Below, piece after piece: positions 13,860-45,494 of a stretch of 61,990 nt of DNA. The position numbers and the translations under genes were made by a program. Source of the stretch: a virus (lineage: Duplodnaviria > Caudoviricetes); the IMG/VR virus record IMGVR_UViG_3300042868_003570, positions 1-61,990 of that record; one strand, written 5' to 3'. The notes beneath the pieces are model-generated. The model had not been told where the DNA came from, did not search any database, and was given only the letters and a program-made list of their open reading frames with translations. The first letter of the stretch is position 1. Every line of letters begins with the position of its first letter.

Positions 13860-16800
13860 ATGACGTATACCGTTGCTCTTCCAGATGGCCGCACTGTTGA
13901 ATTTCCAGACAGCGTACCAAAAGAAAGGGCAGCGGAACTGTTGCGGCAACAGTTTCCAGCACCAGAAGCCAAAGCCGCTGGTTTCTCGGTTAGCGACATC
14001 TTCACTTCTCTGGGGTTAGGAGCGCTTGGCGGCACTAAAGCCCTGACTGACGTTGCTGGTGCAGGCAACGTCGTTTCTGAAAAACTGGGACAAGCAAGCG
14101 AGTCCCTCCAGCAACGCCTGTCCCCTGAGCGACAAGCCGAAATCAGACGCCAGCAAGAACGCGCTGAGAAGGCCGCAACCAGCGGCAGCACACTTGAAGA
14201 GATTAAAGCTGGCGCACAAAGCGTTTTTGAAGCCCCGCTCCAGTCCACAGCGCAGGCACTGGGCTCCTTTGCCCCCATCCTTGCCACTCTGTTCCTTGGC
14301 CCCGGCGCTGCCGCGCTAGGTCTTGGCGCTAGGGCCACTGCCGTAGCCACCAACATTGCCAAAGCAGCGCCCGTTGCAATCGGTACCGCGCAGGGAGCCG
14401 GTGCAGTCAAAGGCGCTATCTACGAGGGCGTCTACAAAGCAGAGCGCAAAGACGGCGTATCTGAAGACGAGGCGAAGGAAAAAGCCACCGCAGCGCAGGA
14501 CTATTTTGGCCAGAACATCGACCAGATTCTGGTGGGCGCTGGCGCAGGTTATGTCTCAGGCAGGTTTGGTGCGGAGCGCCTGCTTACTCCCGGCGCTGCC
14601 GCTAAAGCTGAAGGCTCGATGCTGGGCCGTGTTGGCACGGCGTTGGCAACAGATGTGCCAACCGAAGCCTTTCAAGGCGGTCAGGAACAGTTTGCACAGA
14701 ACCTTGCGCTGCAGCGCGAAGGACGCGATGTACCCCTCTTCCAAGGGGTGGCTGCACAAGCCACGCAAGAAGGTCTCATGGGGGCACTGGGGTCAGGCCC
14801 CATCGCGGCTATACGCGGCCCCGGAGATGCCCGCCTGCGGGAAGAGCAAGATCGCCGAGCCGCAGAGTCCGCACAACTGCAAGCGCAAGCTGACGCCCAG
14901 CGTGCCGAGCAAGAGGCGTTTAAACAGACGCCTGAGTACCTTGATGACATTGAAAAACGGTTTGCGCAAATAAAAGCGCAGGAGAAGCAACTCAAAGACG
15001 CCGTTCCGGCAAGGGCTGACAAAGACGATCTGCTGGCTGTTGAAGAACGCCGCAGGGCAGTCGAGGCGCTCAATGAGTTTAAAAAGAGCGACGAGTACGT
15101 CAACACCATTGACGAGTACACGCAGGCGTACGACCAACTTCGCCCTCGCGCACAAGAGCGCAAAGCGGCAGAGGTTGAGAAGCAGCGTGTTGAGCGTGTG
15201 CAAGCTGCCCCTGAAGGAACTCAGCTTGACCTAGCAGGAGAACCGGGCGCGGCGCAGGACATGTCGCAGCAAGGGCAGGTCGAGTCTCTTAAACAATACA
15301 TTGCATCTTTCGACAAGCAGATCAAACAAGCGCAGGCGGCAGGCGACCGGAATCAAGTGCTGGCGTTGCAAAACAAGCAGTACGAGGCACAGCAGCAACT
15401 TGCCACTATCGCCATCTCTGAATCGCTGCCGGAGCAGATCAAGTCACTTTCGCAGGACTTTGGCGGTTTTACTGAAAAAATTAAGCAGGCTGCGGGCGAT
15501 GAGGAACAGGTGCGCAAGCTGCTGGTTGAGCAGTACAAGGTGCAGCAGCAGATCACATCGCTGTTGCCTGACGCGTCGATGCTGGACGAGGCTAAGGCGT
15601 TGGCCCAGCGCAATCTAGAAAATTACCAGACGCAAATTCAAACGCTTACAGAGCAGCCTAATAAAAAACCTGAGCAGTACCGCCAGCTTGAGCAGCTTAG
15701 CAACACCGCCAATCAGGTTCGACAGGCAATTGCGGGCATTGAGTCCACGCAAAAAACGGTTGAACAGTACGCGCCCGTCGAGAAGCAAAAAGCTATTGAC
15801 AAGCCGCGAGAGATAGCCAAACTCAATAAAAAACTGGAAGATCAAGCCGCGCTGGGTGAAGACATCGGCCCAACGCTGGAAAAACTCCGGGCGCTGGATA
15901 CCGTTGCAGAGCAGCCAGCCCTGTTCGGTGATGAAGACCTGCGGGATGTAGTTCCTCGTGACTTAGGCGACATCATGGCCGACGAACGCGAGCGTGTTAA
16001 AGCCTTGCGAGAAAAGCTTGACGCCGAGCGTGCCTCCTTGCAGCGCATGGCTGCGACACCGCAGACGCAGCTCACGGAAGAAGTGCAGCGCAGAAAGAAA
16101 GAGCTTACTGAAGAGGCGCGAAAGACGGCTCAAGAACTTCAGCAACGCAACAAAGACCTGTACGAGTTTGAGAAGAAGCAGACGCTGCTCGACAAGCTGC
16201 GTAAAGAAAAACGTACGCCGCTGGTTGCCCAAGGCATTGAGGCCATTCAGCAGCAGATCGCTGCGTTGCAGAAAAAACTACAAGCGCAAGAACCCAAGGT
16301 CCGCGTACAGCAGCCACGAACCAAGCTGCCTGAAGCCGCCCCTGAAGGGGAGTTTGCACCTCGCGTAACTGACGCTCAACTTACTGAGCAGCGCGACCGC
16401 GACATTGCGGCGCTGTTGGACAAGTTCTTGCCCGGTGCACTGGGCGTAACACCCACGCTAGAGGTACTGAAAGTGCAGGGGCCGGAGGGTCCGCGTGAAG
16501 TAAGACTGACCACGCTGGGTAGCACAAGCAGCAAAGCTTTGCGCCAAGAACTGGAAAACGTAAACCGCCGCCGTGATGACGCTGTTGTGGAGTTGTTTGA
16601 CTCTAGAGGCCCAACGGCTAACGCGTTGCGCAGCGAAATCGTCATGTTGGTCACGCGTGAGGTGGAGCTAAACCGTCAACTGAGCAAACTTGACCCGCTC
16701 AGTAATGAGTACCGAAAAGACTTGCAGTCGCTTGTTCGGCAGACGTTTACGCGCCCCAGCGCCATACCCAAAAACCGCACACCAAACCTTGCGGAACAGC

Positions 16801-19800
16801 AGTACCTTGACGCCGTTGACAACATGCAGCGCGTTGAAGACGCCACGCTGGACGACATTTATGCAATGAACAAGCTGGCGTATAACGCTAGGCAGCGTGG
16901 GGTTGTAGATATAACCGCTTTGGTGCAGAACAACCCCGTCATGCAAGCGGGGCGGGATGCTGAAGCGCGTTTGTCCGCCGCCCAAAAGCGTGTTGATGAA
17001 GCGGCTAAAAGAATGCCGCAACTGCCGGACCTCACTGAGCAGGCGCTTGAAGACAAGATTGACACGCTTGCGGCGGAGTTTTCTGAGGGCACACCCCAGC
17101 AACTCTCAACCGCAACTAAAGCACGGCGTGTGCCAGCCGCCGTGCGGCCCCCGGCTTTGTTGGGCGTGGACATCCCTGCACAAATTGCAGCCAATAACCG
17201 GCAGATTGAGCAGCTCAACAAAGACATTCAGTACGCGGGTAAACCGTCAGGTGCTGAGAAAGTGGCAGCGCTCAATAAGATGAAGGCGGAGCGTGACCAG
17301 CGCCGGGAAGAGAACCAACGGCTTGACGCACAACTGACAACAATACGCGGCAAACTAGGACAAGCCGCAGAGCCCGCAGCGCCCGCAGAAGAAATTGGTG
17401 AAGTTGCCGAGATGCGGCAAGAGCTTGCCACCATTGAGCGCACGCTTGCATCAGATAAAAAAGAACTTAAACAACTGCAAGAGCAGTTGCAAGAACAGCA
17501 GAAAAAAGAACAAACGCCCAAAATTCAAGAAGAAGTTGCCACTTTGGGGCGGCGGATAAAACAATTTGAGGCTAGAGCCAACATCACGCGTCAGCTTGAG
17601 GCTGCACGCGATGACCTTAAAGAACGGCTTCAGGCGCAGGGGGCAAAACCTGTAGAAACGCCTAGCACAGAAGAACAGTTGGGGTTTAGGACAGGCCCCG
17701 CGTCAAAATTTCAGTTAACAGAACTCAAACCTGTTACCGCAGAAATGACCAAAGCGCGTACCGCTATTGTTGCGGCTACGCAGCGCATTGAGGACATACA
17801 CAAAGCCGCAGGTCGTGTTAGCGACATGGGCGAGCAGTACTTCCGCGAAGTTGCAACGACGTACCAGCTACAACTGGACAAAGACAACAATGCGCTGAAC
17901 AACATTAAAGCCGCCATTGCACGCGTGTTGAAAGGACAGGAGGAAGCGCAGCTTGCCATCAACGCCGCACGTACACCTGAACAAAAGGCAACTGCGGTCA
18001 AAAACTTAGACGAGCTGCGGCAGCGAGAAGTCGACCTCAAAGATTTGCAAACGGTGCGCGAGCGCCGAAAAGCAGGGATGCGTGAAGCCATTGCCGAAGT
18101 GCAGCGGTTTCTGAATCTGTCGCGGTTGGCGGGCGTAAACAAAACCACCAGCCTGCGCGAAAGCCTTGCCCAAGCACTTGACCGCGCTTTGGCAGATAGG
18201 GAGAAAAAAGAAGCCGCGCTTGCAGAATTGCAGAAAAAGCAACGCATGTACGAGCAGCAAGAGGCTGCTAGGCGCGGGATCGACCTCGGCGAAGCTGAAG
18301 CTGAGAAGATTACTGCGGGTGAGGCTGAAGGGTTTGTGTCGGTGTCTGGTAAAGCACTGGGCGAGAAACCTAAAGCACAACGCAGCGGGGTCATCAGCAA
18401 AGACAGCAAAGTCAAGGTCATCAAACCTGACCAAAGCAAGAAGTTGGAAGAGGCTATTCAAACTGCTGCGGCTTTGGTTGGCGAAGCTCGGCGCGAGAAA
18501 GAGACCGCCAAGGAAGCATTGCAAGCGCAAACGCCTTCCGCAGAGCGCTTGGCTTCGCTTAAACAAGCACTCACAGCGCTTGAAAAGCAGGTCAACGCAC
18601 ATTACAACGCGACACAGATTGCAGAACTTCAAGCCGAGATTGGGCAGTTGCAAGCGCGGTTGGCGGCGCTTCCCGTTGCACCGGCAATTGCTGACGTAGC
18701 TGAGCAATACAACAAGGCCAGCACTGCCACAAAGGGTTTACCCGCACCAGAGCGCGTTGCGCAGTTGATGTTTGATAAAAGCAGCGCTGAACAAAAAGCC
18801 GCCGCGCAGTTCAAGGCCGCTGAGCAAGCCGTTGCTGCTGCCCAAGCCAAGTACGCCGCCGCCGGAAAAGCGCTGAGTCAGGCTGAGAAAAAAGTTGCGA
18901 AGACGCTACCTCAAGGGTTTAAGGTACGAAATCCGCAGAGACTTCAGGGCATCAAGCTGCAGATCAGCAATTTGCTTGCTTCCGCACCAAAACTGCGTGA
19001 TGACATTCAAAACGCTTTGTACGCGCAGAGCGAGGCAGAGAAGAACTACATGGCAGCTCGCCTTGAGCGGCTGCTGCTTAACCAGCAGATGGGCGAACAT
19101 GCCAAGCGTGATGCTGCCAGCATCACGGCACAGTTGGCAAGCGCTGCCGACGCCGTTGCAAACCTGCAGAAACAACTGAGCACCGCAACTGCCAATGAAG
19201 TTGCAATGCGAAGCAAGCTCGACAAGAGCAGCGCAGCGTTGGAAAAAGCCCTGGACGACGCAGAGATTGCACGGCAAGCCGCACGCAACGCAGAGCGTTT
19301 GGCGCAGGAGCAAGCGCAGACATCTGCACTGGATGCCGCCAAAGACGCGCAAGACCGCGCTGATGCTTTACGCACAGGGCTTGGGTTGCCCGGCAGGCGC
19401 GTCGAGCGCGACACCGCAGGCAAGGTGATGACGGCGGTTCAAGCTGACATTCGTCAGCGCATGGCTGCGGCAGAGACCAACCTGTCCAAAGCAATCAAGG
19501 CAGGCAACCCAGACGCTATCAGGAAGTACACCGCCGAAGTTGAAGCCACGACTAGAGAGCTGGCGCAGGTGTACAGCAAAGCCCCGCTTACTGTTTCCGA
19601 GGTCGGTGCTGCAGCGCAAGCACGCAAACGCTCCGCAGGGCTTACCGCTAAACAAAAAGAAAAAACGCTGGAGAGCGTACAAAAAGAACTGGACGAGGCG
19701 GTCATCGAATTGCGCGATGCAACTAATCGTAACGACACCGCAGCGATTAAAGCAGCGGACGCTAAAGTTGAAGAACTGATTACGCTGCGCGATGCGTACG

Positions 19801-22800
19801 CAGTTCAAACGGCAGCACAACCAGAAGTTGTCGAGGGTGTGCGCTCGACTTCACGCCGGGAAGGTCCGGCTGTTCGTTATGTTCGTGGCGGCAGCAAAGC
19901 CATCATGCAGGCTGGCGCGGTCAAGTTGCGTGCGGCAGGCATGTCGCAAGACGCGGCCAATGCGGTCAGTTTGTACGTGGCCAAGAGCAGAATCCGTGGC
20001 GCTAAAGACACGGCAAAAGTGGAAGAGCTGACGCAAGCCTTTGACGCGCTCACTGATGGCATGACCGAAGAGCAGATCAAAGCCGCAGTTGCAGAAGGCA
20101 AGCGCCTCATGGGCCTCGGCCCCACTGCTGAACTTATAGCCAAGCGTGTAACGTACCAAGAGGCGTTGGCAAACGTCAGTAAAGCAGAGCAGGACTTGCG
20201 CGAAGCCAAATCCAATGTGACCAAAGAACTTGCGCAAGATGCGTTGGATTTGGCAAAACAGCGCGTAGAGTCTGCTTCCAACTCGTACGACCAAGCCAAG
20301 GCGCTGTACGAAACGTCGCAAATCAGGACCGCCAAGAAAGCCGAGAAGGACGCGGTCGAGGCGCTGTTTGATGAGACAGAGATTGCGCAGGACACGAAAG
20401 GTGCCAAGCTCGGCAAGGGCGCAGGTCGTACCGCAGCGGCGATTGAGGGGAGCGTGTTCCGTACCACTGACACCGCTGGACCCGGCATGAAAGCGCAACG
20501 TGTCCGTGACGTAGCGCTTAAAGTTGCGTCTGAGTGGTCTGTTGTGCCGGACATTTTTGTTGTAGAAGACATTGACGGGTTGCCAGAGAACATCCGGGAG
20601 CAGGCAATAAAAGCAGGTGTTGCCGACAACATTCCGGGCGTGTACGACCCAGCAACCAAGACTGCTTATCTGGTTGCTAGCAACCTTAAAACAACTGAAG
20701 ATGTGTTGTTGACCCTTGCGCACGAGGTAGCCGGTCACTTTGGTTTGCGAGAAGTTTTGGGTAGTTCGTACGCACGCACTATGCAAAAGCTGTATGCGGG
20801 CAACAAACTTGTGCGTGACCGTGCCAACGAGAAGATGCAGGCGCAAAAGTTTCTTGACCAGAATACGGCGGTGGAAGAGGTGCTGGCGGATATGGCTGAG
20901 ACGGGGGCGTCACCACAAGAGCGCAATCTTTTGCAACGCGTGTATGACTTTGTCAAGCGCTGGCTCAAGGACACGTTTCCAAGCTTGAAAATTGACCGCG
21001 TTACTGACAACGATGTGCGGCAGGTTGTGGCCAACGCTCGGCGCTATGTGACCAACGCAGACAAGTCTTTGCTGGAAGGCGGCGCTGCTGCTACCAGCGG
21101 CGTGGTCTATCGCACAGCGCCCGAGTCCTCCATCGTTGGGCGTCCTGCCGGTACGCTGGCTACGCTGCACGGCAACTTCTTCGGTCTGGCGGGGCGTGTG
21201 CAGCTCGTTGACAGGCTGGCGGCGGCAGACAAGGCGTTTGTCGAGGGCCAGAAGGACGGGAAGCTGTCATCGCTGGAGGCGGAGAACGCGCAGTATTTCT
21301 TGCGTATGGGCGACATGACAACGCAAGCTGCGGGGCAGTTCATTACCAACGGGCCTGTGCGTATCATCAAAGACCGCATCGCTGATCGCGTGGAAGAGCG
21401 CTACGAGTCACAGAGCGGCGCAACACTTGTTCGCGTGACGGACTACATGGAGCGTGCAGGTCAAGAAGGGCTGGGCTCAGCGCAAGAGGTTGAGACGCTG
21501 CTCACCGTCAAGATTGCCGGTGATCGCGCCAACACCATCCCTCGTGGCTGGGAGCGCCTGTTCTCAGAGAACCCCGCAAAAGCCAAGGCCGAGTACGACG
21601 CCGCTGTTGCCAAGATCAACGCTAACCCTGCAGCCAAGAAGTTCATGGACGCAGCAGCCGTAGAGTACAAGGCGTACAACGACGGGCTGATGGATTTTGC
21701 CGAGCAGACCGGGTTCATCACGACAGAGGACGCTCGCCGCTTGAAGAAGACACCGTACGTGCCTTACTACCGAATTGATGGCGGCGTGGTCAAACTGTTT
21801 GTGGACCGTGAGACCCCGCTGGTCATTGGCAACATCAAAGACAACCCTGACTTGCAGCAACTGCTTGGCGACAACAAGCAGATCATGCCGCTGCTGACCA
21901 GCGCTGTGCAGAACACTTTCATGCTGACTCGCATGGGGCTGCGCAACAAGGCTACGCAAGAGACAGCGTCGGCACTGGAGAAGGCCGGGTTCGTGTCCAA
22001 GATGGGTGAAGGCATGGGGCTGGCCAACGTCGATACTGTGCACTACAAGTACAAGGGCAAGCCGTACTTTGCAACCATTGACGCAGATCAGTTTGGCATC
22101 CCCGCAGACCTGATCGTCAAGGGCATGGAGGGTATCAAGACAACGATCCCTGACATCGTGCGGTTGATGGGTGTACCGGCGAACTGGATTCGCACATTCG
22201 TGACGCGTTCCCCCGCGTACGTGCTGCGGCAGTTGATCCGTGACCCATTGAGCGCGGCTATTACCGGCGGTGTGGACGGCGTGCCTGTGCTCAACGCAAT
22301 GAAGCAGCTTGCCAAGATGAAAGCGGGCACAAACACTTCAGCCGACGCCTTGATGCGCGGCCTGACTGTGAGCAGCAACATCTACACCGGCAACGAGCAG
22401 GACATGCAAAAGTTCCTTGAGGCTGCGTCTGGTGGGCGCGGGAAGTGGAGCAAACTGATGGGCGTGTTTGACCAACTGGCGCTGGAGTCGGATGCGGCCA
22501 CGCGTACTGTTGTGTACGAGGACTCGTTGAAAAAGGGGTTGTCCGAGCGGCAAGCGCAGTTCCGCGCACTGGAGGTGCAGAACTTTGGACGCCGGGGCTT
22601 GTCGCCCAGCGTGCAGTACATGGCTACGCTGGTGCCGTTCTTTAACGCGCAGATTCAGGGTCTTGATGTGCTGTACCGCAGCTTCCGTGGCGACATGCCG
22701 TTCTCCGAGAAGCTGGAGATTCGCAAGAAGATTGTGTCTCGCGGCTTGCTGTTGACGGCTACCGCGCTGGGGTACGCGTTCATGATGCGTGACAACGAGG

Positions 22801-23678
22801 AGTACAAGAAGGCCACGCCTGAAGAGCGCTACAGCAACTTCTTTGTGCCAATTCCAGGCACCAAAGACATGTTCAAAATACCAATCCCCTACGAGGTTGG
22901 CCTGCTCTTCAAAGCGTTGCCCGAGGCGTTGCTCGACGCCATCATCGGCGACACCAAAGCCACGGAAGCTGCCAAGGGTATAGGCAAGTTGCTGTTGCAG
23001 TCGGCCCCCGGCGTGATCCCAGCGGCAGGCAAGCCGTTGATTGAGGCGGCTTATGGGCAGACGCTTATTGGGCCAATTGAATCCGAGCGCGAGAAGCGGC
23101 TTTTTGCGGGCCAGCGCTTTCGTGAAAACACACCGGAGGTGCTCAAGACTCTGGGCTCGTACACCGGCGCAATCGGTATCTCACCGCTGCTACTGGAACA
23201 CTTTGCTAGAGGCTACACCAGCACGCTTGGCGTGTCAGTGCTGCGGGCGCTGGACCCCATCATGGGCGAAGCCCTTGACAACAAGGCCACAACGCCCTTG
23301 AGCAAAACACCTTTTATTGGCGGCTTGTTCCAGACAGCCGATGGCAGGTTCCTGATCGAGCGTGCGTACAACCGCATGGAAGAAGTCACGCAGGCGGCTG
23401 ATAGTTACAAGGACTTGCAAAAGCGAGGCAAAAAAGCCGAGGCAGAAGCGTTTGCGCAGCGGCACGCGGACTTGCTTGCGGCATCGGACATGGCGGGTAC
23501 ATTTCGGCAGCGCTCTGGTCAGATGTTTGCAGACGAGCGAGCAGTACGTGCAGACCCAAGCCTGTCCCGCGAGCAGAAAGACGCGTTGCTCGCAAAAATC
23601 AAAGCAGCGCAGCAGATGGAGGCGAAGCAGTTCAGCGAAGCTTCCGATAAAACCACACGCCAAGCCGCCCGTCCCTGA
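13860..23678 (+). CDS. Giant virion/ejection polyvalent protein (3272 aa) with zincin-like metallopeptidase motif and LPD38-like C-terminus
   Basis: TLAHEVAGHFGLR and AVEEVLAD motifs; FKIPIPYEVGLLFKALPE C-terminal region; long coiled coil; hydrophobic N-terminal segment. Confidence 0.8.
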   Translation: MTYTVALPDGRTVEFPDSVPKERAAELLRQQFPAPEAKAAGFSVSDIFTSLGLGALGGTKALTDVAGAGNVVSEKLGQASESLQQRLSPERQAEIRRQQERAEKAATSGSTLEEIKAGAQSVFEAPLQSTAQALGSFAPILATLFLGPGAAALGLGARATAVATNIAKAAPVAIGTAQGAGAVKGAIYEGVYKAERKDGVSEDEAKEKATAAQDYFGQNIDQILVGAGAGYVSGRFGAERLLTPGAAAKAEGSMLGRVGTALATDVPTEAFQGGQEQFAQNLALQREGRDVPLFQGVAAQATQEGLMGALGSGPIAAIRGPGDARLREEQDRRAAESAQLQAQADAQRAEQEAFKQTPEYLDDIEKRFAQIKAQEKQLKDAVPARADKDDLLAVEERRRAVEALNEFKKSDEYVNTIDEYTQAYDQLRPRAQERKAAEVEKQRVERVQAAPEGTQLDLAGEPGAAQDMSQQGQVESLKQYIASFDKQIKQAQAAGDRNQVLALQNKQYEAQQQLATIAISESLPEQIKSLSQDFGGFTEKIKQAAGDEEQVRKLLVEQYKVQQQITSLLPDASMLDEAKALAQRNLENYQTQIQTLTEQPNKKPEQYRQLEQLSNTANQVRQAIAGIESTQKTVEQYAPVEKQKAIDKPREIAKLNKKLEDQAALGEDIGPTLEKLRALDTVAEQPALFGDEDLRDVVPRDLGDIMADERERVKALREKLDAERASLQRMAATPQTQLTEEVQRRKKELTEEARKTAQELQQRNKDLYEFEKKQTLLDKLRKEKRTPLVAQGIEAIQQQIAALQKKLQAQEPKVRVQQPRTKLPEAAPEGEFAPRVTDAQLTEQRDRDIAALLDKFLPGALGVTPTLEVLKVQGPEGPREVRLTTLGSTSSKALRQELENVNRRRDDAVVELFDSRGPTANALRSEIVMLVTREVELNRQLSKLDPLSNEYRKDLQSLVRQTFTRPSAIPKNRTPNLAEQQYLDAVDNMQRVEDATLDDIYAMNKLAYNARQRGVVDITALVQNNPVMQAGRDAEARLSAAQKRVDEAAKRMPQLPDLTEQALEDKIDTLAAEFSEGTPQQLSTATKARRVPAAVRPPALLGVDIPAQIAANNRQIEQLNKDIQYAGKPSGAEKVAALNKMKAERDQRREENQRLDAQLTTIRGKLGQAAEPAAPAEEIGEVAEMRQELATIERTLASDKKELKQLQEQLQEQQKKEQTPKIQEEVATLGRRIKQFEARANITRQLEAARDDLKERLQAQGAKPVETPSTEEQLGFRTGPASKFQLTELKPVTAEMTKARTAIVAATQRIEDIHKAAGRVSDMGEQYFREVATTYQLQLDKDNNALNNIKAAIARVLKGQEEAQLAINAARTPEQKATAVKNLDELRQREVDLKDLQTVRERRKAGMREAIAEVQRFLNLSRLAGVNKTTSLRESLAQALDRALADREKKEAALAELQKKQRMYEQQEAARRGIDLGEAEAEKITAGEAEGFVSVSGKALGEKPKAQRSGVISKDSKVKVIKPDQSKKLEEAIQTAAALVGEARREKETAKEALQAQTPSAERLASLKQALTALEKQVNAHYNATQIAELQAEIGQLQARLAALPVAPAIADVAEQYNKASTATKGLPAPERVAQLMFDKSSAEQKAAAQFKAAEQAVAAAQAKYAAAGKALSQAEKKVAKTLPQGFKVRNPQRLQGIKLQISNLLASAPKLRDDIQNALYAQSEAEKNYMAARLERLLLNQQMGEHAKRDAASITAQLASAADAVANLQKQLSTATANEVAMRSKLDKSSAALEKALDDAEIARQAARNAERLAQEQAQTSALDAAKDAQDRADALRTGLGLPGRRVERDTAGKVMTAVQADIRQRMAAAETNLSKAIKAGNPDAIRKYTAEVEATTRELAQVYSKAPLTVSEVGAAAQARKRSAGLTAKQKEKTLESVQKELDEAVIELRDATNRNDTAAIKAADAKVEELITLRDAYAVQTAAQPEVVEGVRSTSRREGPAVRYVRGGSKAIMQAGAVKLRAAGMSQDAANAVSLYVAKSRIRGAKDTAKVEELTQAFDALTDGMTEEQIKAAVAEGKRLMGLGPTAELIAKRVTYQEALANVSKAEQDLREAKSNVTKELAQDALDLAKQRVESASNSYDQAKALYETSQIRTAKKAEKDAVEALFDETEIAQDTKGAKLGKGAGRTAAAIEGSVFRTTDTAGPGMKAQRVRDVALKVASEWSVVPDIFVVEDIDGLPENIREQAIKAGVADNIPGVYDPATKTAYLVASNLKTTEDVLLTLAHEVAGHFGLREVLGSSYARTMQKLYAGNKLVRDRANEKMQAQKFLDQNTAVEEVLADMAETGASPQERNLLQRVYDFVKRWLKDTFPSLKIDRVTDNDVRQVVANARRYVTNADKSLLEGGAAATSGVVYRTAPESSIVGRPAGTLATLHGNFFGLAGRVQLVDRLAAADKAFVEGQKDGKLSSLEAENAQYFLRMGDMTTQAAGQFITNGPVRIIKDRIADRVEERYESQSGATLVRVTDYMERAGQEGLGSAQEVETLLTVKIAGDRANTIPRGWERLFSENPAKAKAEYDAAVAKINANPAAKKFMDAAAVEYKAYNDGLMDFAEQTGFITTEDARRLKKTPYVPYYRIDGGVVKLFVDRETPLVIGNIKDNPDLQQLLGDNKQIMPLLTSAVQNTFMLTRMGLRNKATQETASALEKAGFVSKMGEGMGLANVDTVHYKYKGKPYFATIDADQFGIPADLIVKGMEGIKTTIPDIVRLMGVPANWIRTFVTRSPAYVLRQLIRDPLSAAITGGVDGVPVLNAMKQLAKMKAGTNTSADALMRGLTVSSNIYTGNEQDMQKFLEAASGGRGKWSKLMGVFDQLALESDAATRTVVYEDSLKKGLSERQAQFRALEVQNFGRRGLSPSVQYMATLVPFFNAQIQGLDVLYRSFRGDMPFSEKLEIRKKIVSRGLLLTATALGYAFMMRDNEEYKKATPEERYSNFFVPIPGTKDMFKIPIPYEVGLLFKALPEALLDAIIGDTKATEAAKGIGKLLLQSAPGVIPAAGKPLIEAAYGQTLIGPIESEREKRLFAGQRFRENTPEVLKTLGSYTGAIGISPLLLEHFARGYTSTLGVSVLRALDPIMGEALDNKATTPLSKTPFIGGLFQTADGRFLIERAYNRMEEVTQAADSYKDLQKRGKKAEAEAFAQRHADLLAASDMAGTFRQRSGQMFADERAVRADPSLSREQKDALLAKIKAAQQMEAKQFSEASDKTTRQAARP

Positions 23679-28306: not shown

Positions 28307-28717
28307 TCATTTGGATTTAGTTACACGAATCTCGAACTCGGTGTACGAGTTCAGTCCGGGTGGCACGGCCCCCGGATTCTCTTGCAGGAAGGTCGCCATG
28401 TTCGTCTGTGCGATGCGTTTTTCCAGCAGGTCAACGACTTGGTGCTCAAGAATGAACTTCTTGAACGAGTCCCAGTCCTGCGTGTTGTAGCGCGTCTTGG
28501 TCGAGAGGGAGACCGTCCCGTAGGAGGTATTGACAGACTTCAGGCCGAGCGCCTTCATCTTGTCTTTGATGGCAAAGCGCACCTCGTCTTGCTGTGCCTT
28601 GAGTTGCTCCACCGCAGTGTCGTACTCCTTGGTCAGCGCGTCGATGCGCCCTTTAATCCTGCTGTGGATTTTCACGAGGAGGTCAATTGGAACCACCTCA
28701 TCTTCAGTTTCGTTCAT
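28307..28717 (-). CDS. Conserved replication-module protein (coiled coil; Gam-like?)
   Basis: SVNTSYGTV...DWDSF...LLEKRI...PPG pattern. Confidence 0.6.
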   Translation of the reverse strand: MNETEDEVVPIDLLVKIHSRIKGRIDALTKEYDTAVEQLKAQQDEVRFAIKDKMKALGLKSVNTSYGTVSLSTKTRYNTQDWDSFKKFILEHQVVDLLEKRIAQTNMATFLQENPGAVPPGLNSYTEFEIRVTKSK

Positions 28718-28736
28718 GTGCTTTCTCCTGTTGTTT

Positions 28737-28752
28737 TGTCAAGCGTTGGACA
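28737..28752. promoter_or_regulatory. Operator-like site TGTCAAGCGTTGGACA (copy 1)
   Basis: Identical copy at 37228; abuts the -10 of a minus-strand promoter. Confidence 0.7.
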
Positions 28753-28779
28753 GTGTACATGGGTTTTTGGGTTGTGCAA
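28752..28779 (-). promoter_or_regulatory. Sigma70-like promoter TTGCAC-N16-TACACT
   Basis: Intergenic, upstream of the 28717 gene. Confidence 0.6.
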
Positions 28780-28789
28780 GTGCCTCCTT

Positions 28790-30349
28790 TTAAGATTTAA
28801 TTTCTGCCTCGAACATGGCCGTGAGCAGGTCGTTGTCAGTGACGCGGGCCGTCAGCGCCTTGAACATCTTGCGCTCGATGGGGGAGCCTTGGATGTGCAG
28901 CACCGTCACCTTGTCGCTGTTCTGGCCCTTGCGGTCAGCCCGTGCAATGCACTGGATGTACTGCTCGACCGACATCAACGGGCCGTAGAAGACCACCGTG
29001 TCGGCAGCGGTTAGGGTAATCCCGTGTGCCGTTGCTTGCGGCTGCATGACAAGCAGCCGTGGGTCGGGCTGGGTCTGGAACCTGTGGATGATGTCAGCGC
29101 GTTTTGTCGCGCTCACACCGCCGTGGATGACCTCGGCCTTGATGCCCTTTTTGGTCAGGTGCGTGTGGATGGCGTCAATGGTGGAGCGAAACAGCGCGAA
29201 GACGATGACCTTGCGCTCGGTCTCCTCCAGTATCTCTTCGAGCACGCCCAAGCGCGGCGCTGAGTCGAACTCGACCACCGCCTTCTCGTCTGTGTAGGCC
29301 GCACCACAACTGATCTGCAGCAGCTTGCTGACGCCCGCAGCGGCGTTGACCGCAGTGATGGTCGTTCCGGCTGTGTGCACCAGCATCTGATCCTTGAGCA
29401 AGTTGTAGTACTTGGTCTGCTGCGGCGTGAGCGGCACCTCGCGCACCAGCGTCATGACAGGCGGCAGGTCAAGGCACTGCTCCTTGGTGAACCTGATGGC
29501 GGGCTGCAACGCGTTGAACACATCGTCCTTGGCCGTGGGCTTAGGCCCCCACTTGAACATGGTGAGCTTCATCATCACCAGATCACGCCATGCTGTGAAG
29601 AACTGCGGCACGCCTTGTGGGTTGACCAGCTTGGCCAGACCATACGCATCAGCAGGCGACTGCGAAGCAGGTGTGCCCGTCATCATCCACAGGTACGTGT
29701 CAGGCTTGATGATGGCCTTGAGCGTCTTCCACCGCCTAGTGGTCATGGTCTTGTAGGCGTTGGCCTCATCGACGATCACAAGGTCGAACCTGCCGTCTGC
29801 GTTGATCTCATCTGCGATCAGGTTGAGCCCGTCGTAGTTGCAGATCACAAACTCGTAGTCCGACTGAATCATCTCGATGCGCTTGGCAGACTGCGCATGG
29901 TGCGCGACGATGGCCGAGCGATGAATGATTGAGTTGTTGAGATCACTCATCCACGCTGCGTGCATGATCGACAGTGGGCACAGTATCAGCACACGGCGCA
30001 CAAGCCCACGGTTCATCAGGTAGTCAGCCGCCCACAGCGCTGCAAGCGTCTTGCCAGTGCCGGGGTCGTTAAAGACGAAGGCTTTGCGGTTGACGGTGAG
30101 GAACGATGCAGTATCGACTTGGTGCGCCATAGGCTTGTAGCGCCCCGGCCAGTTGTAGCGCCGCGTGATGGGCGAGGGCACATCTTTGACGCCGAGGTTG
30201 CGCAGCACCCGCACCTCTTCGAGCCCCCAGTACACCGCGATTTTGTACGTGTCACCCTCGCGCTCAAGTATCTTGTGCTTGGGGATTAGGTTGTATCTTT
30301 GCGGGTTACGCGTTCGAAAGACGAGCGCCTTGTCTTCAACTATCTCCAT
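28790..30349 (-). CDS. SNF2-family helicase
   Basis: DPGTGKT, VIVDEA, MTGTP, HGITLT, QCIARADRKGQ. Confidence 0.92.
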   Translation of the reverse strand: MEIVEDKALVFRTRNPQRYNLIPKHKILEREGDTYKIAVYWGLEEVRVLRNLGVKDVPSPITRRYNWPGRYKPMAHQVDTASFLTVNRKAFVFNDPGTGKTLAALWAADYLMNRGLVRRVLILCPLSIMHAAWMSDLNNSIIHRSAIVAHHAQSAKRIEMIQSDYEFVICNYDGLNLIADEINADGRFDLVIVDEANAYKTMTTRRWKTLKAIIKPDTYLWMMTGTPASQSPADAYGLAKLVNPQGVPQFFTAWRDLVMMKLTMFKWGPKPTAKDDVFNALQPAIRFTKEQCLDLPPVMTLVREVPLTPQQTKYYNLLKDQMLVHTAGTTITAVNAAAGVSKLLQISCGAAYTDEKAVVEFDSAPRLGVLEEILEETERKVIVFALFRSTIDAIHTHLTKKGIKAEVIHGGVSATKRADIIHRFQTQPDPRLLVMQPQATAHGITLTAADTVVFYGPLMSVEQYIQCIARADRKGQNSDKVTVLHIQGSPIERKMFKALTARVTDNDLLTAMFEAEIKS

Positions 30350-30367
30350 TTACTTCCTCCTTGTGTT

Positions 30368-37029: not shown

Positions 37030-37183
37030 GGGTCTTCCTCTGGATGTGTTGTGCAAGCAGCCACTTGTCTCCCAAGAGCCGCACAGACCTCACCCACTTG
37101 CGTTGGTTGGCCCGATTAGTCTCAAGCGATACGTGCTCTACGTTCCATAACTCGCGCACATGGCGCAGCATTCTTACGTTCAT
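37022..37183 (-). CDS. Small protein (53 aa, MNVRMLRHVRELW...)
   Basis: AAGGAGAAAGCAAAATG start; TGA 37022-37024; below the ORF track size cut-off. Confidence 0.7.
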   Translation of the reverse strand: MNVRMLRHVRELWNVEHVSLETNRANQRKWVRSVRLLGDKWLLAQHIQRKTHA

Positions 37184-37227
37184 TTTGCTTTCTCCTTGTT
37201 GTGAATGGTGCCTGACAACCCGAAGGT

Positions 37228-37243
37228 TGTCAAGCGTTGGACA
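37228..37243. promoter_or_regulatory. Operator-like site TGTCAAGCGTTGGACA (copy 2), overlapping a cUUCGg hairpin at 37213-37232
   Basis: 16/16 identical to 28737-28752; intergenic. Confidence 0.7.
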
Positions 37244-40553: not shown

Positions 40554-40722
40554 GTGCGTACCTCTCGAACAGATGCCCGAAGGCGTTGACCAACAGCACT
40601 TGGTTGGTGCTGTCTGCACGGAAGAATGCCAGTGCTATCGCAGAGGCAAAGCCTCCGCCTTCGCGCTCCATCCTGCGTGCTGCTATCAACAGCTCGTCTT
40701 CACTCATATCGTTTGCTTTCAT
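40546..40722 (-). CDS. Small protein (58 aa, ...GGGFASAIALAFFRADSTN...)
   Basis: AAGGAGAAACCAAATG start; below the ORF track size cut-off. Confidence 0.7.
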   Translation of the reverse strand: MKANDMSEDELLIAARRMEREGGGFASAIALAFFRADSTNQVLLVNAFGHLFERYAHE

Positions 40723-41006
40723 TTGGTTTCTCCTTTGGTTGACTTACGTTTGGGTGCGACCTCGTCCAGCACGAAGCTGCCCTCGACCTGCGGTTGGTAG
40801 AAGCTGATTTCGTAGCTTGCGGACTTGTCACCCGGCACATACCACACCCAATAGAGCATGGGCTTTTTGTTGTAGCGCAGCTTGTCCATCGTCTGCATCA
40901 GGGCGTGTAAGTCCGTGCCTGAGCGCCACTCGAACACGTTGACGAGCAGGTAGTGGAACTCGGGCTGGGTGTGCTTCATTAAGCGTTCTGTCATGTCGAT
41001 CTTCAT
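40719..41006 (-). CDS. Hypothetical protein
   Basis: AAGGAG RBS before ATG 41006. Confidence 0.65.
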   Translation of the reverse strand: MKIDMTERLMKHTQPEFHYLLVNVFEWRSGTDLHALMQTMDKLRYNKKPMLYWVWYVPGDKSASYEISFYQPQVEGSFVLDEVAPKRKSTKGETK

Positions 41007-41299
41007 TTGTGTAGCTCCTTTGGTTGAAGTGCGCAGTACCAGCGATTGACGCCGATGCGTCGAGACACGACTTTCAGGCGTGGGGTTTGTTTTTGGTTGT
41101 GCACGTATGCCACCAGACACTTAACCAGCACAGACTCTGCGCCACCGCTGGGCGTTTTGCGTAGCTGGTCACTCTCGATAACCACAAAACCCTGCGCTTT
41201 TATCGTCTCGCAGAGTGCGGCCCAGTCGTACACAACCTTGGTCGGCACCGTGGTAGGTTCCGCAGTCCATCCGTTATGGTGTATGTCTTCAACCTTCAT
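41003..41299 (-). CDS. Hypothetical protein
   Basis: AAGGAGAAAGCAAATG start. Confidence 0.7.
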   Translation of the reverse strand: MKVEDIHHNGWTAEPTTVPTKVVYDWAALCETIKAQGFVVIESDQLRKTPSGGAESVLVKCLVAYVHNQKQTPRLKVVSRRIGVNRWYCALQPKELHK

Positions 41300-41315
41300 T
41301 TGCTTTCTCCTTTGG

Positions 41316-41860: not shown

Positions 41861-42124
41861 TTATCCTTCCAGCTTTTCTTCGTTGATGAACATCTGGCCA
41901 AACTGCTCCCACAGGGGGATGTACCCGCTGTCTTCGACGGGCTCATCTTCAGCAAGCTCAAACATTTCACGGTACTCACGCTCACATTCTTTGGTGTGCT
42001 CATCGACTACAGCCTGCGCTGCTTCGCGGGTGCGGTATGCCCCATAGAAAGATGCGCTGGCTTGGTAGTACGGGTCGTCGCAGATGTAGAGTTTGGTGAC
42101 GATGTAAACGATGGTTGACTTCAT
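41861..42124 (-). CDS. Acidic hypothetical protein
   Basis: AAGGAGAAAGCAAATG start; YGAYRTREAA motif. Confidence 0.7.
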   Translation of the reverse strand: MKSTIVYIVTKLYICDDPYYQASASFYGAYRTREAAQAVVDEHTKECEREYREMFELAEDEPVEDSGYIPLWEQFGQMFINEEKLEG

Positions 42125-42190
42125 TTGCTTTCTCCTTTTTACAAGTGCCGCACATTTGTCATGGCTGTGCGGCATGGCCATATTTGAAAA

Positions 42191-43981: not shown

Positions 43982-44404
43982 TTACTTGGCAACAGCTTCG
44001 AGAGCAGCGATGGCAGCGGCCAAGCTGTCGAACTGCTCAAGGTAAGCCTTGGCTGCTGCCCTGTGCTGCTTGCTGATGCGAGCGTGGGCCTTGGGCTGAG
44101 CCACCACCGCTTTCACAGGGCGCACCACGCAGTACCTGAAGTCACTGCTGGCCCTGTCAATCGCCTGTACGTGCTCAATCTTTGCGCCATCGCCTTTGCC
44201 CCTAGAGAGAATTCTCTCTGGGACACCCTTGATGGCCTTGCACTCTACCTGCCCTTCAAGATAACCCAGCATCCACCTACGGCGAAGGTCTGACTGCTGC
44301 TCGGCAGTAGCGCCGACATAAGCCACATGAAAGGCATCGGCGCCGTTGCGCATCTCATGCCGTGTGCGGCCCACACGGGCTGCATATTGTTGAATCGAGA
44401 TCAT
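43982..44404 (-). CDS. First gene of the early arm, hypothetical
   Basis: AGGAGCAACTTCCATG start. Confidence 0.7.
   Translation of the reverse strand: MISIQQYAARVGRTRHEMRNGADAFHVAYVGATAEQQSDLRRRWMLGYLEGQVECKAIKGVPERILSRGKGDGAKIEHVQAIDRASSDFRYCVVRPVKAVVAQPKAHARISKQHRAAAKAYLEQFDSLAAAIAALEAVAK
44204..44219. repeat. Palindrome AGAGAGAATTCTCTCT
   Basis: Perfect, intragenic. Confidence 0.85.
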
Positions 44405-44424
44405 GGAAGTTGCTCCTACGAACG

Positions 44425-44440
44425 AGAGAGAATTCTCTCT
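44425..44440. repeat. Palindrome AGAGAGAATTCTCTCT
   Basis: Perfect, just upstream of the RBS of the first early gene. Confidence 0.85.
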
Positions 44441-44719
44441 GGGTTGATGACCACTACACGTATGTGCAGTGGGTTGATCGGGCTGCTGTTGCTGCTCCGA
44501 TATCTCTATTTGACTTATGGGGGGTTTGGGGAAGGTCATGGCAGACCCCCTTCTTCGACCCCCACCGTACCCCCACCCACCATATATAGGCATGACGGGA
44601 CGCTGCCACACGAACACTGTTTCACACCTACCCCCACAACTTCCGTAACACTTAGCTACTACTTCCCTAATACCTTTTACATACCCCCCTAAATTTTTAT
44701 AAAAATTACAGACAATCTG

Positions 44720-44735
44720 TGTCTAACGCTAGACA
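44720..44735. promoter_or_regulatory. Operator-like site TGTCTAACGCTAGACA (copy 3)
   Basis: 14/16 match to the reverse complement of copies 1 and 2. Confidence 0.6.
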
Positions 44736-44744
44736 ACATCAGGC

Positions 44745-44776
44745 AAAAAAATGCCCCCGGTTGCAACCGGGGGCAT
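44745..44776 (-). terminator. Intrinsic terminator of the sRNA
   Basis: ATGCCCCCGG-TTGCAA-CCGGGGGCAT running into a T7 tract on the minus strand. Confidence 0.85.
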
Positions 44777-44828
44777 AAAGGAAACTTCCATTCCCAAGGA
44801 GAAAGCAAATGTCTTGCGACAACTGCTG
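44745..44828 (-). ncRNA. Candidate anti-Shine-Dalgarno small RNA (about 85 nt)
   Basis: Promoter TTGCTT-N17-TACACT, GUC-GCAA-GAC hairpin, CAUUUGCUUUCUCCUU seed complementary to early RBSs, intrinsic terminator. Confidence 0.7.
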
Positions 44829-44843
44829 CACTAAGTGTATAGT
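44814..44843 (+). promoter_or_regulatory. Putative late promoter TTGCGA-N18-TATAGT
   Basis: Upstream of terS; overlaps the -10 of the divergent sRNA promoter. Confidence 0.55.
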
Positions 44844-44862
44844 CCGCAGCATCGGTAAGCAA
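44834..44862 (-). promoter_or_regulatory. Sigma70-like promoter TTGCTT-N17-TACACT
   Basis: -35 at 44862-44857, -10 at 44839-44834. Confidence 0.7.
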
Positions 44863-44885
44863 GGGCTTCGCGCCTAAACCCGCAC

Positions 44886-45494
44886 ATGCTTGAACACTTG
44901 TTGGATTTTGAACCAGACGTTCTCACAGAGGATGGGCAAGCACGCGCTGTCGAAAAGCACAGCGCCGCGCAAGTGATAGACGCGCAGGTCTCGACCGCAG
45001 ACTTTCTTGCGTCTTTAGGATGCCCCGACACCAACGCCGCTGTCTCAGCGCTGGAGCAGCAGGCCGCACGCACCGCCTTTAACGCGGTCGTCACGCACGA
45101 GGACAGCACCCACCACAAACTCGCCCAGATACAAACGCCTGCAGCCGTGCGCCATCTTGTAGGGATGCTGACCGCCTATGACTGGGAGTTTGTGCAGCAA
45201 GCCAAGGAGCTGCGCGGCTATACGGTGGCCAAGTTGGTGGAGGAATCTCAGAACCCCAACGCCAATATAAGGCTCAAAGCGCTGGGCCTGCTGGGCAAGG
45301 TCACAGAGGTGGGGCTCTTTACTGACAAGATCGAGGTCAAAAAGACAGACCTCACGGAAGACGAGATCGACAAAAAGCTTAAAGAAAAGCTGGCCAAGTT
45401 CATGGGCGTGACGGATGTTGCGCACGAAGACATTGAAGATGTGATCCCTCTTGGGGAAAACCCTAATGACGAACAGCCCGACACTGACGCCTGA
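44886..45494 (+). CDS. terS: Terminase small subunit (probable)
   Basis: Directly upstream of TerL; RLKALGLLGK...GLF motif. Confidence 0.7.
   Translation: MLEHLLDFEPDVLTEDGQARAVEKHSAAQVIDAQVSTADFLASLGCPDTNAAVSALEQQAARTAFNAVVTHEDSTHHKLAQIQTPAAVRHLVGMLTAYDWEFVQQAKELRGYTVAKLVEESQNPNANIRLKALGLLGKVTEVGLFTDKIEVKKTDLTEDEIDKKLKEKLAKFMGVTDVAHEDIEDVIPLGENPNDEQPDTDA

Follow-up and report, generated by a model that had tools for sequence, protein, structure and literature searches.

A predicted small RNA with an anti-Shine-Dalgarno core in the control region of an uncultured freshwater phage clade, and its possible action on early genes

Introduction

The minus strand at 44746–44828 of phage record IMGVR_UViG_3300042868_003570 raises the question of whether a small RNA gene is located there and, if so, on what its RNA would act. 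The record is a 61,990-base IMG/VR virus (Caudoviricetes) with an estimated completeness of 98%, and its whole length was analysed and is referred to as the window. The segment belongs to the control region from which the early/replication arm and the packaging/structural arm diverge. A sequence-only reading of this locus had proposed a phage-encoded RNA that silences the phage's own early genes in trans through an anti-Shine-Dalgarno sequence. Comparison with related loci indicates that a minus-strand small RNA gene is very probably real. Its conserved core is complementary to an extended ribosome-binding site (RBS) at early gene starts, and the best reading, which we consider evenly balanced between true and false as a whole, is that a small RNA of this uncultured freshwater phage clade silences the early genes tagged in this way.

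Results

A conserved small RNA gene on the minus strand

The predicted RNA is about 83 nucleotides (nt) long and occupies 44746–44828 on the minus strand, its 5′ end being placed from the −10 hexamer and its 3′ end from the U run. The 83-nt sequence 44828–44746 folds at −37.7 kcal/mol (z = −4.99), and none of 200 shuffled sequences was as stable. Stem-loop 1 (44804–44827) combines an outer stem, in which the 5′ end of the RNA pairs with UUGCU, and an inner hairpin with a GCAA loop, UGUC-GCAA-GACA, the GNRA hairpin described in the sequence-only reading. Stem-loop 2 (44780–44795) is predicted from folding and covariation. The third hairpin belongs to an intrinsic terminator (44745–44776) that had also been described before, with a stem-loop at 44776–44751 (an 11-bp stem with eight G-C pairs, and a 4-nt loop) followed by a U run. 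It is the strongest terminator-like site between 40 and 47 kb, and on the plus strand the same hairpin is preceded by an A run and has no T run after it. A U tail of 6–9 nt and a short U/A-rich linker before the terminator are present, and features of this kind are sequence hallmarks of Hfq-dependent small RNAs. In two relatives (L060:3247–3344 and L064:2539–2636, minus strand) a six-U run also follows hairpin 2, giving two tandem terminator-like sites.

Relatives were collected by three terL-anchored scans of IMG/VR, which gave 208 loci, 190 of them with a recognisable −10 block followed by a terS-like start. Removal of duplicates and of loci with less than 230 nt upstream left 122 distinct control regions, the window included. 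A hairpin and T-run terminator, together with a GCU..CUCC block between terminator and −10, is present in 119 of the 122. The relatives come from lakes and wastewater, and at least 119 distinct phage contigs carry the RNA. The three relatives that do not (L035, L085, and L084, which is the same contig as L031) are also missing the terminator and the minus-strand −35; their early promoter abuts the late promoter, and GGAGAA(A)GCA is absent from 10.1 kb of their early DNA. Twelve RNAs were used to build a covariance model, which has a sole match in the window, at 44746–44830 (43.1 bits, E = 3.2e-07), and one match in each of 99 of 100 sources (859 kb, both strands), always opposite terL. It also found 19 of 19 further carriers and gave one match each in two contigs binned into metagenome-assembled genomes (MAGs), with zero matches in the three non-carriers, in the cultured relative DSL-LC04 or in a MAG relative of 54% identity.

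The first set of relatives comprised 55 distinct RNAs. All of them fold in the order hairpin 1, linker, hairpin 2, terminator, and all have a T run after the terminator; hairpin 2 is present in 53, as 50 differing segment sequences. RNAalifold on a plain MAFFT alignment (48 of the 55 RNAs) recovered only seven pairs because the hairpins were misaligned, and this alignment was replaced by an 87-row covariance-model alignment. The latter is fitted to the model and so leans towards the model's structure; in it, the share of paired cells is 85.3%, whereas shuffles give 69.4% (none of 500 reaching the observed value), 25 of 30 pairs are changed on both sides, and the covariation score is 0.412 against 0.169, falling to 0.103 or less with partners slid. 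Two-sided changes affect 8 of 12 pairs in helix 1 (90.3% of cells paired), all eight pairs in helix 2 and nine of the ten in helix 3, the terminator.

The fold also distinguishes the two strands. The whole RNA is more stable on the minus strand in 53 of the 55 sequences (mean −39.5 versus −32.0 kcal/mol), and hairpin 1 alone in all 55 (z of −2.77 on the minus versus −0.83 on the plus strand). G.U pairs account for 151 of 667 hairpin-1 pairs, and these favour the minus strand because they become A.C mismatches on the opposite one. The self-contained, non-coding minus-strand unit of about 85 nt in the sequence-only reading thus reappears at about 83 nt, with promoter, three covarying hairpins, core and terminator in 119 of 122 regions. 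The gene, its strand and its structure are well supported by this comparison of sequences, which makes a minus-strand small RNA gene at this locus very probable. A 20-amino-acid (aa) frame on the minus strand, running through hairpin 2 and the terminator, was rejected as coding; it has no RBS and is not kept.

Divergent promoters around the small RNA

The putative small-RNA promoter was read in the sequence as a −35 TTGCTT (44857–44862, minus strand) and a −10 TACACT (44839–44834). Both hexamers and their 17-nt spacer are present as the earlier reading had them, but by our own count they agree with the consensus at only 7 of 12 positions, and the promoter scan, below whose threshold they fall, does not list them. 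The scan does list the divergent late (terS/terL/portal) promoter on the plus strand, TTGCGA-18-TATAGT (44814–44843, with the −35 at 44814–44819), which has nine of 12 consensus matches. Its −10 TATAGT (44838–44843) and the minus-strand TACACT share a near-palindromic block at 44834–44843. From its sequence, this block is a bidirectional promoter of the symmetric −10 kind, with overlapping −10 hexamers and a −35 for each. Such symmetry, giving bidirectional promoters, is common in bacteria (10.1101/2020.01.31.928960; PMC12825309), and the bacterial promoters described in these sources resemble the present one in being divergent pairs with overlapping, near-palindromic −10 hexamers and a −35 of their own on each side. 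They differ in that the two predicted arms of the phage promoter would drive a terminated small RNA and a late operon.

Across 59 distinct promoter blocks, the GTrTAyAyT core is kept. The spacer to the plus-strand cTTGC is 18 nt in 48 blocks and 17 nt in seven (17–18 nt in 55 of 59), and a minus-strand TTG lies 17–18 nt from the −10 in 56. With 16–18 nt allowed, this TTG is found in 119 of 119 RNA-bearing relatives and in none of the three without the RNA. The distance from the minus-strand −35 to the −10 is fixed, whereas that to the terS start varies from about 38 to 73 nt, so the hexamer is not simply the RBS of terS. The consensus-like early promoter (44696–44735, minus strand), also read in the sequence, is found directly downstream of the small-RNA terminator and comprises TAGACA (44725–44720), an 18-nt spacer and TATAAA (44701–44696); a strict pattern detects it in 50 of 110 relatives. 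Unlike this promoter, those of the small RNA and the late operon have the form TTGCnn-17/18-TAyAyT. The small RNA thus falls in the promoter class of the late operon, and late timing would therefore be expected for it.

The conserved core and its complementary sites

The best conserved columns of the 87-row alignment are the approximately 13 nt of the core UUGCUU(U)CUCCUU (0.76–1.00 identity), which is better conserved than the promoter hexamers. In the window this core, UUGCUUUCUCCUU, which is the putative seed, lies at 44796–44808 on the minus strand. The sequence-only reading had given 44811–44796 as the stretch complementary to early gene starts. In the predicted fold only UUCUCCUU (44803–44796) is unpaired, and CAUUUGCU forms part of hairpin 1's lower stem. 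In minimum-energy folds the linker (U)UCUCCUU stays single-stranded, and CUCC has a median unpaired probability of 0.95, with values of at least 0.5 in 43 of 55 sequences, a count for which the search pattern mis-picked some rows. The 5′ partners of UUGCU vary (G/A, C/U and A/G, with wobble changes) and UUGCU itself stays constant, so the core is constrained by more than stem 1.

The 16-mer AAGGAGAAAGCAAATG occurs exactly at 44796–44811 on the plus strand and, on the minus strand, at 41297–41312 and 42122–42137. There it spans the RBS and ATG of early open reading frames (ORFs) of 98 and 87 aa (predicted duplexes of −27.8 and −25.2 kcal/mol), so that the exact complement to Shine-Dalgarno sequence, spacer and AUG noted earlier for the genes at 41299 and 42124 was recovered. 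Allowing up to three mismatches raises the count to ten sites, of which nine lie at gene starts on the minus strand; 0.48 were expected from 100 shuffles, in which the largest count was three and none reached ten. The 15-of-16 match reported for the gene at 40722 was found at 40720–40735 (minus strand; −21.1 kcal/mol). Other predicted minus-strand targets are 37182–37197, with one extra A before the ATG (−24.5 kcal/mol), 30347–30362, at the RBS of a SNF2-type helicase gene of 519 aa (two mismatches; −26.3 kcal/mol), and, with an 11-nt core and predicted to be weaker, 28715–28730 (−20.1 kcal/mol). At 37183, 39747, 31758 and 28717, for which weaker matches had been claimed, AGGAGAAAGCA stands directly before the start codon. 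Outside the RNA gene, the strongest predicted duplexes all fall at minus-strand ORF starts (41299, 30349, 42124, 37183, 40392 and 40722). Duplexes of −18 kcal/mol or stronger were predicted for 10 of 46 early versus three of 49 late gene starts in the window, where early and late starts come from a crude heuristic of our own that has some starts wrong and was used for this contrast only.

The same restriction is seen in 15 larger relatives, where GGAGAA(N)GCAA occurs 83 times on the early strand, opposite terL. Twelve of these 83 sites are in one genome (G001), five of them repeated at the two ends of its record. On the terL strand the pattern is found once per genome, at the RNA gene by position, and nowhere else in the 15 genomes; G004, which has a variant seed, has no terL-strand match. 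A reversed control pattern gave two matches in the same 15 genomes. Judged from these sequences, the complement of the core is an RBS type used by the early arm and never by the late arm; both the core and this early-strand restriction emerge from the comparison of relatives.

The form of the site was also compared with that of the seed. The two-A site GGAGAAGCAA is found only where the RNA has the two-A form; this holds for 12 of 12 cases among the loci and, among genomes whose seed was typed, for 28 of 28. Three-A sites accompany both forms, 22 of them in loci with three-A seeds and 21 in loci with two-A seeds, and genomes with two-A seeds hold 24 three-A versus 28 two-A sites. The covariation of seed and RBS that the sequence-only reading had suggested looking for upstream of terS in related phages is therefore partial.

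The first early genes, in many relatives as well as in the window (starts at 44404 and 43609), have another stereotyped site, AGGAGAAACTTCCATG. A second seed, in which the loop of hairpin 2 would face AACUUCCAUG-type sites, was rejected. Its complementarity extends over 11 nt in the window, 8 nt in L003 and at most 6 nt in 85 of 87 distinct RNAs, and is lineage-specific or due to chance.

Genome setting and neighbouring features

The early/replication arm consists of long minus-strand ORFs from about 44,600 down to 23,789, and encodes DNA polymerase A, the SNF2-type helicase, a DUF927 primase/helicase-like protein and a PD-(D/E)XK nuclease as assigned by Pfam. The packaging/structural arm comprises plus-strand ORFs from 44,886 on and, past the end of the record, from 1 to 23,678, with the terminase large subunit gene at 45451, the portal gene at 47008 and an ORF of 3272 aa. 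No phage RNA polymerase was found among the large ORFs scanned with Pfam, and no integrase or repressor was met in the genome, no systematic search having been aimed at them. At the DNA level no match to cultured phages was found; the best cultured terL relatives reach 53% identity at most, and the gene order of DSL-LC04 differs.

A 202-aa ORF before terL (44886–45494, plus strand) is presumably the small terminase gene and matches no PHROG or Pfam family. No Shine-Dalgarno sequence precedes its ATG in the window lineage; other clades have AAGGG or CAGGAC there. The 3272-aa ORF (13860–23678, plus strand) has LPD38 as its sole Pfam match, at residues 2980–3153 near the C-terminus, and probably encodes a large virion protein or ejection protein; by Pfam it is no N4-type RNA polymerase. 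The idea that this ORF is a virion RNA polymerase served by N4-like hairpin promoters was dropped because LPD38 is all that Pfam shows.

The palindrome TGTCyAnCGyTwGACA at 44720–44735 overlaps the −35 of the early promoter and recurs on the minus strand at about 37215–37235 and 28745–28765, just upstream of the genes at 37183 and 28717; its sequence and placement suggest an operator at which a dimeric regulator would control early/middle promoters. A third promoter-like site of the small-RNA/late type, TTGCAC-16-TACACT, is found at 28752–28779 (minus strand), upstream of the gene at 28717. The leader that follows the early promoter (about 44545–44625, minus strand) contains motifs that are near-invariant in relatives, AAACAGTGTTC and the G-rich GGTGGGGGTAyGGTGGGG. 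They may form a structured leader or a G-quadruplex, or serve as a packaging site or an origin signal, and an Rfam scan gave nothing convincing for the leader. In some relatives, transfer RNA (tRNA) genes are inserted between the small-RNA terminator and the early promoter: L050:1310–1918 has five tRNA matches and one sub-threshold tRNA-Sec-like match, and L063 and L080 have, as judged by eye, tRNA-like sequence downstream of the terminator.

Three short contigs that are close terL relatives (L213, L215 and L212) were binned in Burkholderiaceae, Limnohabitans and Phycisphaerales MAGs, and the small RNA is present in L212 and L215. Binning of such short contigs gives a weak hint of a betaproteobacterial host, too weak to name one. 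The Limnohabitans phages of PMC12195039 are unlike this phage in size and G+C content.

Discussion

A possible mechanism for early gene silencing

The best reading would work as follows. Host polymerase of the sigma-70 type would start at the promoter that shares its near-palindromic −10 with the late promoter, and would stop about 83 nt on at the intrinsic terminator, just before the early promoter. The resulting three-hairpin RNA would expose UUCUCCUU between hairpins 1 and 2, and these anti-Shine-Dalgarno bases could nucleate pairing with the early/middle-gene site AAGGAGAA(A)GCAA(ATG). The duplex would next grow into the lower stem of hairpin 1, which is weak and would open, with the outcome that ribosome binding is blocked and the mRNA is perhaps cleaved. 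The shut-off would coincide with late transcription, because the small-RNA promoter is of the late type and lies in the same region as that of the late operon. That the RNA is expressed, that it acts late, that it pairs in vivo and represses its targets, and that it might need Hfq are all inferred from these sequence features. A wider proposal, which we hold to be less likely than not, is that AAGGAGAA(A)GCAA is a common RBS "address" tagging early and middle genes, read by one RNA fired from the symmetric promoter of the late operon, so that late onset silences the tagged mRNAs. The RNA would then be the counterpart of T4 RegA/RegB in a phage that relies on host polymerase, and it may descend from, or imitate, host CU-rich anti-RBS RNAs and dampen host translation too.

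Several observations weigh against silencing of early genes by this RNA. In about ten RNA carriers no such site was found in the first 3 kb of the early region, and the small-RNA promoter scores below the threshold of the scan. Five bases of the core (UUGCU) are predicted to pair with the RNA's own 5′ end, and opening the longer core block costs 3–7 kcal/mol. The 16-nt complementarity of the sequence-only reading is reduced to its conserved part of about 13 nt, since the exact 16-nt match is special to the window lineage, the complement of the ATG is missing in 38 of 101 distinct regions, and pairing beyond the core is not kept. Ordinary AAGGAG sites, whether of late genes or of the host, would be further partners for the exposed CUCCUU. 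Short-seed RNAs often face mostly longer sites: the loci split into 21 long versus 12 short, G006 and G007 (short seed) each have five of five three-A sites and no two-A site, and in G014 six of eight are three-A. Pairing would thus need a one-base bulge in many relatives, because a short seed meets a long site. In 24 of 32 loci, duplexes with the locus's own seed are stronger than the average over foreign seeds, the mean difference being −1.15 kcal/mol (the seeds of L060 and L064 rank first of 22), but this advantage is small and uncorrected for relatedness, and could stem from shared descent or gene conversion. The covariation of seed and site, uncorrected for relatedness throughout, is weak and partial, compatible with pairing and no proof of it. 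Finally, among the sequencing runs listed (19 DNA and one RNA), the single metatranscriptome run gave three contigs, all in terL and none over 44700–44900; such contigs cannot show small RNAs, and the result is silent either way.

Alternative explanations

The functional element could instead be on the plus strand, with AAGGAGAAAGCAAATG as the RBS of a 22-aa ORF (44809–44877), perhaps coupled to terS, or with the minus-strand RNA as a cis-antisense RNA to such a leader. The spacing from site to ATG is ideal, and the frame remains open in the closest relatives. Its end is 8 nt short of the terS-like ATG at 44886, a start codon that lacks its own site in the window lineage. The start of the frame, however, precedes the conserved late −35, which excludes it from the late transcript, and a plus-strand −35 further upstream is conserved in only two of 50 loci. 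In the 101 distinct regions the site is followed by ATG in 54, by GTG or TTG in only nine and by no start codon in 38, while the encoded peptides range from 10 to more than 100 aa with unrelated sequences; such residues as are kept in close relatives coincide with the promoter hexamers. A spacer that is kept while the start codon is lost is the opposite of what an RBS requires, and by folding and covariation the structure works on the minus strand only. The suggestion that the site is merely the RBS of this ORF, which the sequence-only reading had named as a challenge to itself, is thus contradicted; the ORF, unconserved in start, length and peptide and with no usual upstream promoter, was rejected as a gene, and a plus-strand role for the site is highly improbable. 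A plus-strand motif acting as an activator or pac site was likewise rejected, since it lies anywhere from a few to about 47 nt from the late −35, which a fixed promoter element would not. A transcript that is merely the by-product of a symmetric, bidirectional late promoter, its terminator insulating the early promoter and genes and the RNA having no function in trans, would suit the palindromic −10 common to both arms with a −35 on each side, the frequency of symmetry-born bidirectional promoters in bacteria (10.1101/2020.01.31.928960; PMC12825309) and the terminator directly before the early promoter; three relatives also manage without the whole module. An insulator would need the terminator alone, yet two further hairpins covary and the best conserved part is a 13-nt unstructured or weakly paired core. 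Moreover, all 119 carriers retain the minus-strand −35, although one mutation would be enough to remove a promoter that served no purpose, as in the three non-carriers, and we regard a by-product as very unlikely.

It is also conceivable, if unlikely, that the RNA is real but aimed mainly at the host, as a copy or mimic of the CU-rich anti-RBS RNAs of betaproteobacteria that damps host mRNAs with AGGAG sites, the match to early genes being secondary. Rfam 15 at gathering scores gave no match in the 61,990 bases. A scan of 44400–44950 at E ≤ 10 gave 11 matches, with sub-threshold minus-strand ones that include RF00519 (suhB/mmgR), RF02278 (Betaproteobacteria toxic small RNA) and anti-hemB; these are CU-rich anti-RBS RNAs (PMC4603805; PMC5688073), and the phage RNA is similar to them in its design. 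RF02278 scores 23.8 bits in the window and 33.5 bits in the best of 14 relatives (L037), against a gathering score of 50, and RF00519 scores 24.1 bits in the window and 29.1 bits in L007 and L025, against 41; because its scores are below the gathering threshold, the phage RNA is not a member of RF02278. In the RF02278 alignment the model's 5′ UGUCUCC nevertheless falls on the phage UUUCUCC and is followed by a hairpin and terminator. Burkholderia double-hairpin RNAs are described as having unpaired CU-rich stretches that are reverse complements of ribosome-binding sites, with overexpression of ncS27 slowing growth (PMC5688073), and some relatives of the phage fall in Burkholderiaceae and Limnohabitans MAG bins, including the RNA carrier L215. 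Against an aim at the host, the invariant core runs 6–7 nt past CUCC (UUGCUU), and this extension matches the spacer of the phage's own early sites, a site type that the late strand never uses; host targeting alone leaves this unexplained. MAG binning of short contigs is also weak, and one relative was binned with Phycisphaerales. Action through a protein or machine, for instance as a sponge for an RNA-binding protein or as a packaging cofactor, is favoured only by the position beside terS/terL and the compact three-hairpin form. No feature of a known sponge or of phi29-type packaging RNA was seen, with none in the Rfam scan to E = 10, and conservation centres on a linear run of pyrimidines that mirrors an RBS; we hold such a role to be extremely improbable.

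Comparison with known systems

With early gene silencing kept as the preferred reading, the closest bacterial likenesses are the RF02278 RNAs (ncS03, ncS05, ncS27 and ncS62) and the Neisseria NmsRs. As described in PMC5688073 and PMC4603805, these are also short (57–92 nt), consist of hairpins and a terminator, and have unpaired CU-rich anti-RBS stretches with many targets predicted at start regions. In contrast to the RF02278 RNAs, the phage RNA is phage-encoded, has an extra 5′ hairpin masking part of the seed, and has a longer core that fits the spacer of the phage's own early genes.

In phages P1 and P7, c4 RNA arises by processing of the same transcript whose expression it controls. The phage RNA, in contrast, has its own putative promoter and terminator and forms a separate unit upstream of the early promoter. 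In mechanism c4 is the nearest phage RNA, being phage-encoded and pairing around the RBS of a phage mRNA to block its translation (PMC12197685), although the pairing of the RNA described here is predicted. The c4 RNA serves the immunity of temperate phages and acts on the ant operon, whereas the phage RNA would address many separate genes. The Rfam model for C4 is absent from the 11 matches with E ≤ 10 in 44400–44950.

Phage P22 sar and lambda OOP lower phage gene expression by pairing. They differ from the phage RNA in being transcribed opposite a single target; its predicted targets are 2.6–16 kb away, and no conserved plus-strand transcript over the small-RNA site is apparent (an upstream −35 is present in two of 50 loci). 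T4 RegA is a translational repressor, and RegB is an endoribonuclease that cuts in GGAG. RegA and RegB are proteins, whereas the proposed phage effector is an RNA whose target tag extends through the spacer. The likeness to sar and OOP is that of small phage RNAs with their own promoter and terminator (PMC12197685), and that to RegA and RegB is the proposed post-transcriptional shut-off of many early mRNAs via the RBS (PMC3014915). Examples of phage small RNAs given in a 2025 review come mostly from temperate phages and act on one phage gene or on host genes (PMC12197685). The published articles searched contained no account of this RNA and none of a virulent-phage RNA directed against an RBS common to early genes; supplementary lists of non-coding RNAs (e.g. 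PMC10914365) might hold similar candidates.

Conclusion

The small RNAs of virulent phages are barely understood. The locus described here would add a conserved RNA family, found in at least 119 distinct contigs, together with a testable model of temporal control in which one late-tied RNA would act on many early genes that share an extended RBS. Were this model correct, the identical spacers kept by unrelated early genes would have an explanation, gene timing in an abundant group of uncultured phages would become easier to approach, and the RNA would represent a compact natural means of silencing many genes together. An RNA that instead acted on the host would be an example of a phage exploiting the CU-rich "toxic" RNA principle.

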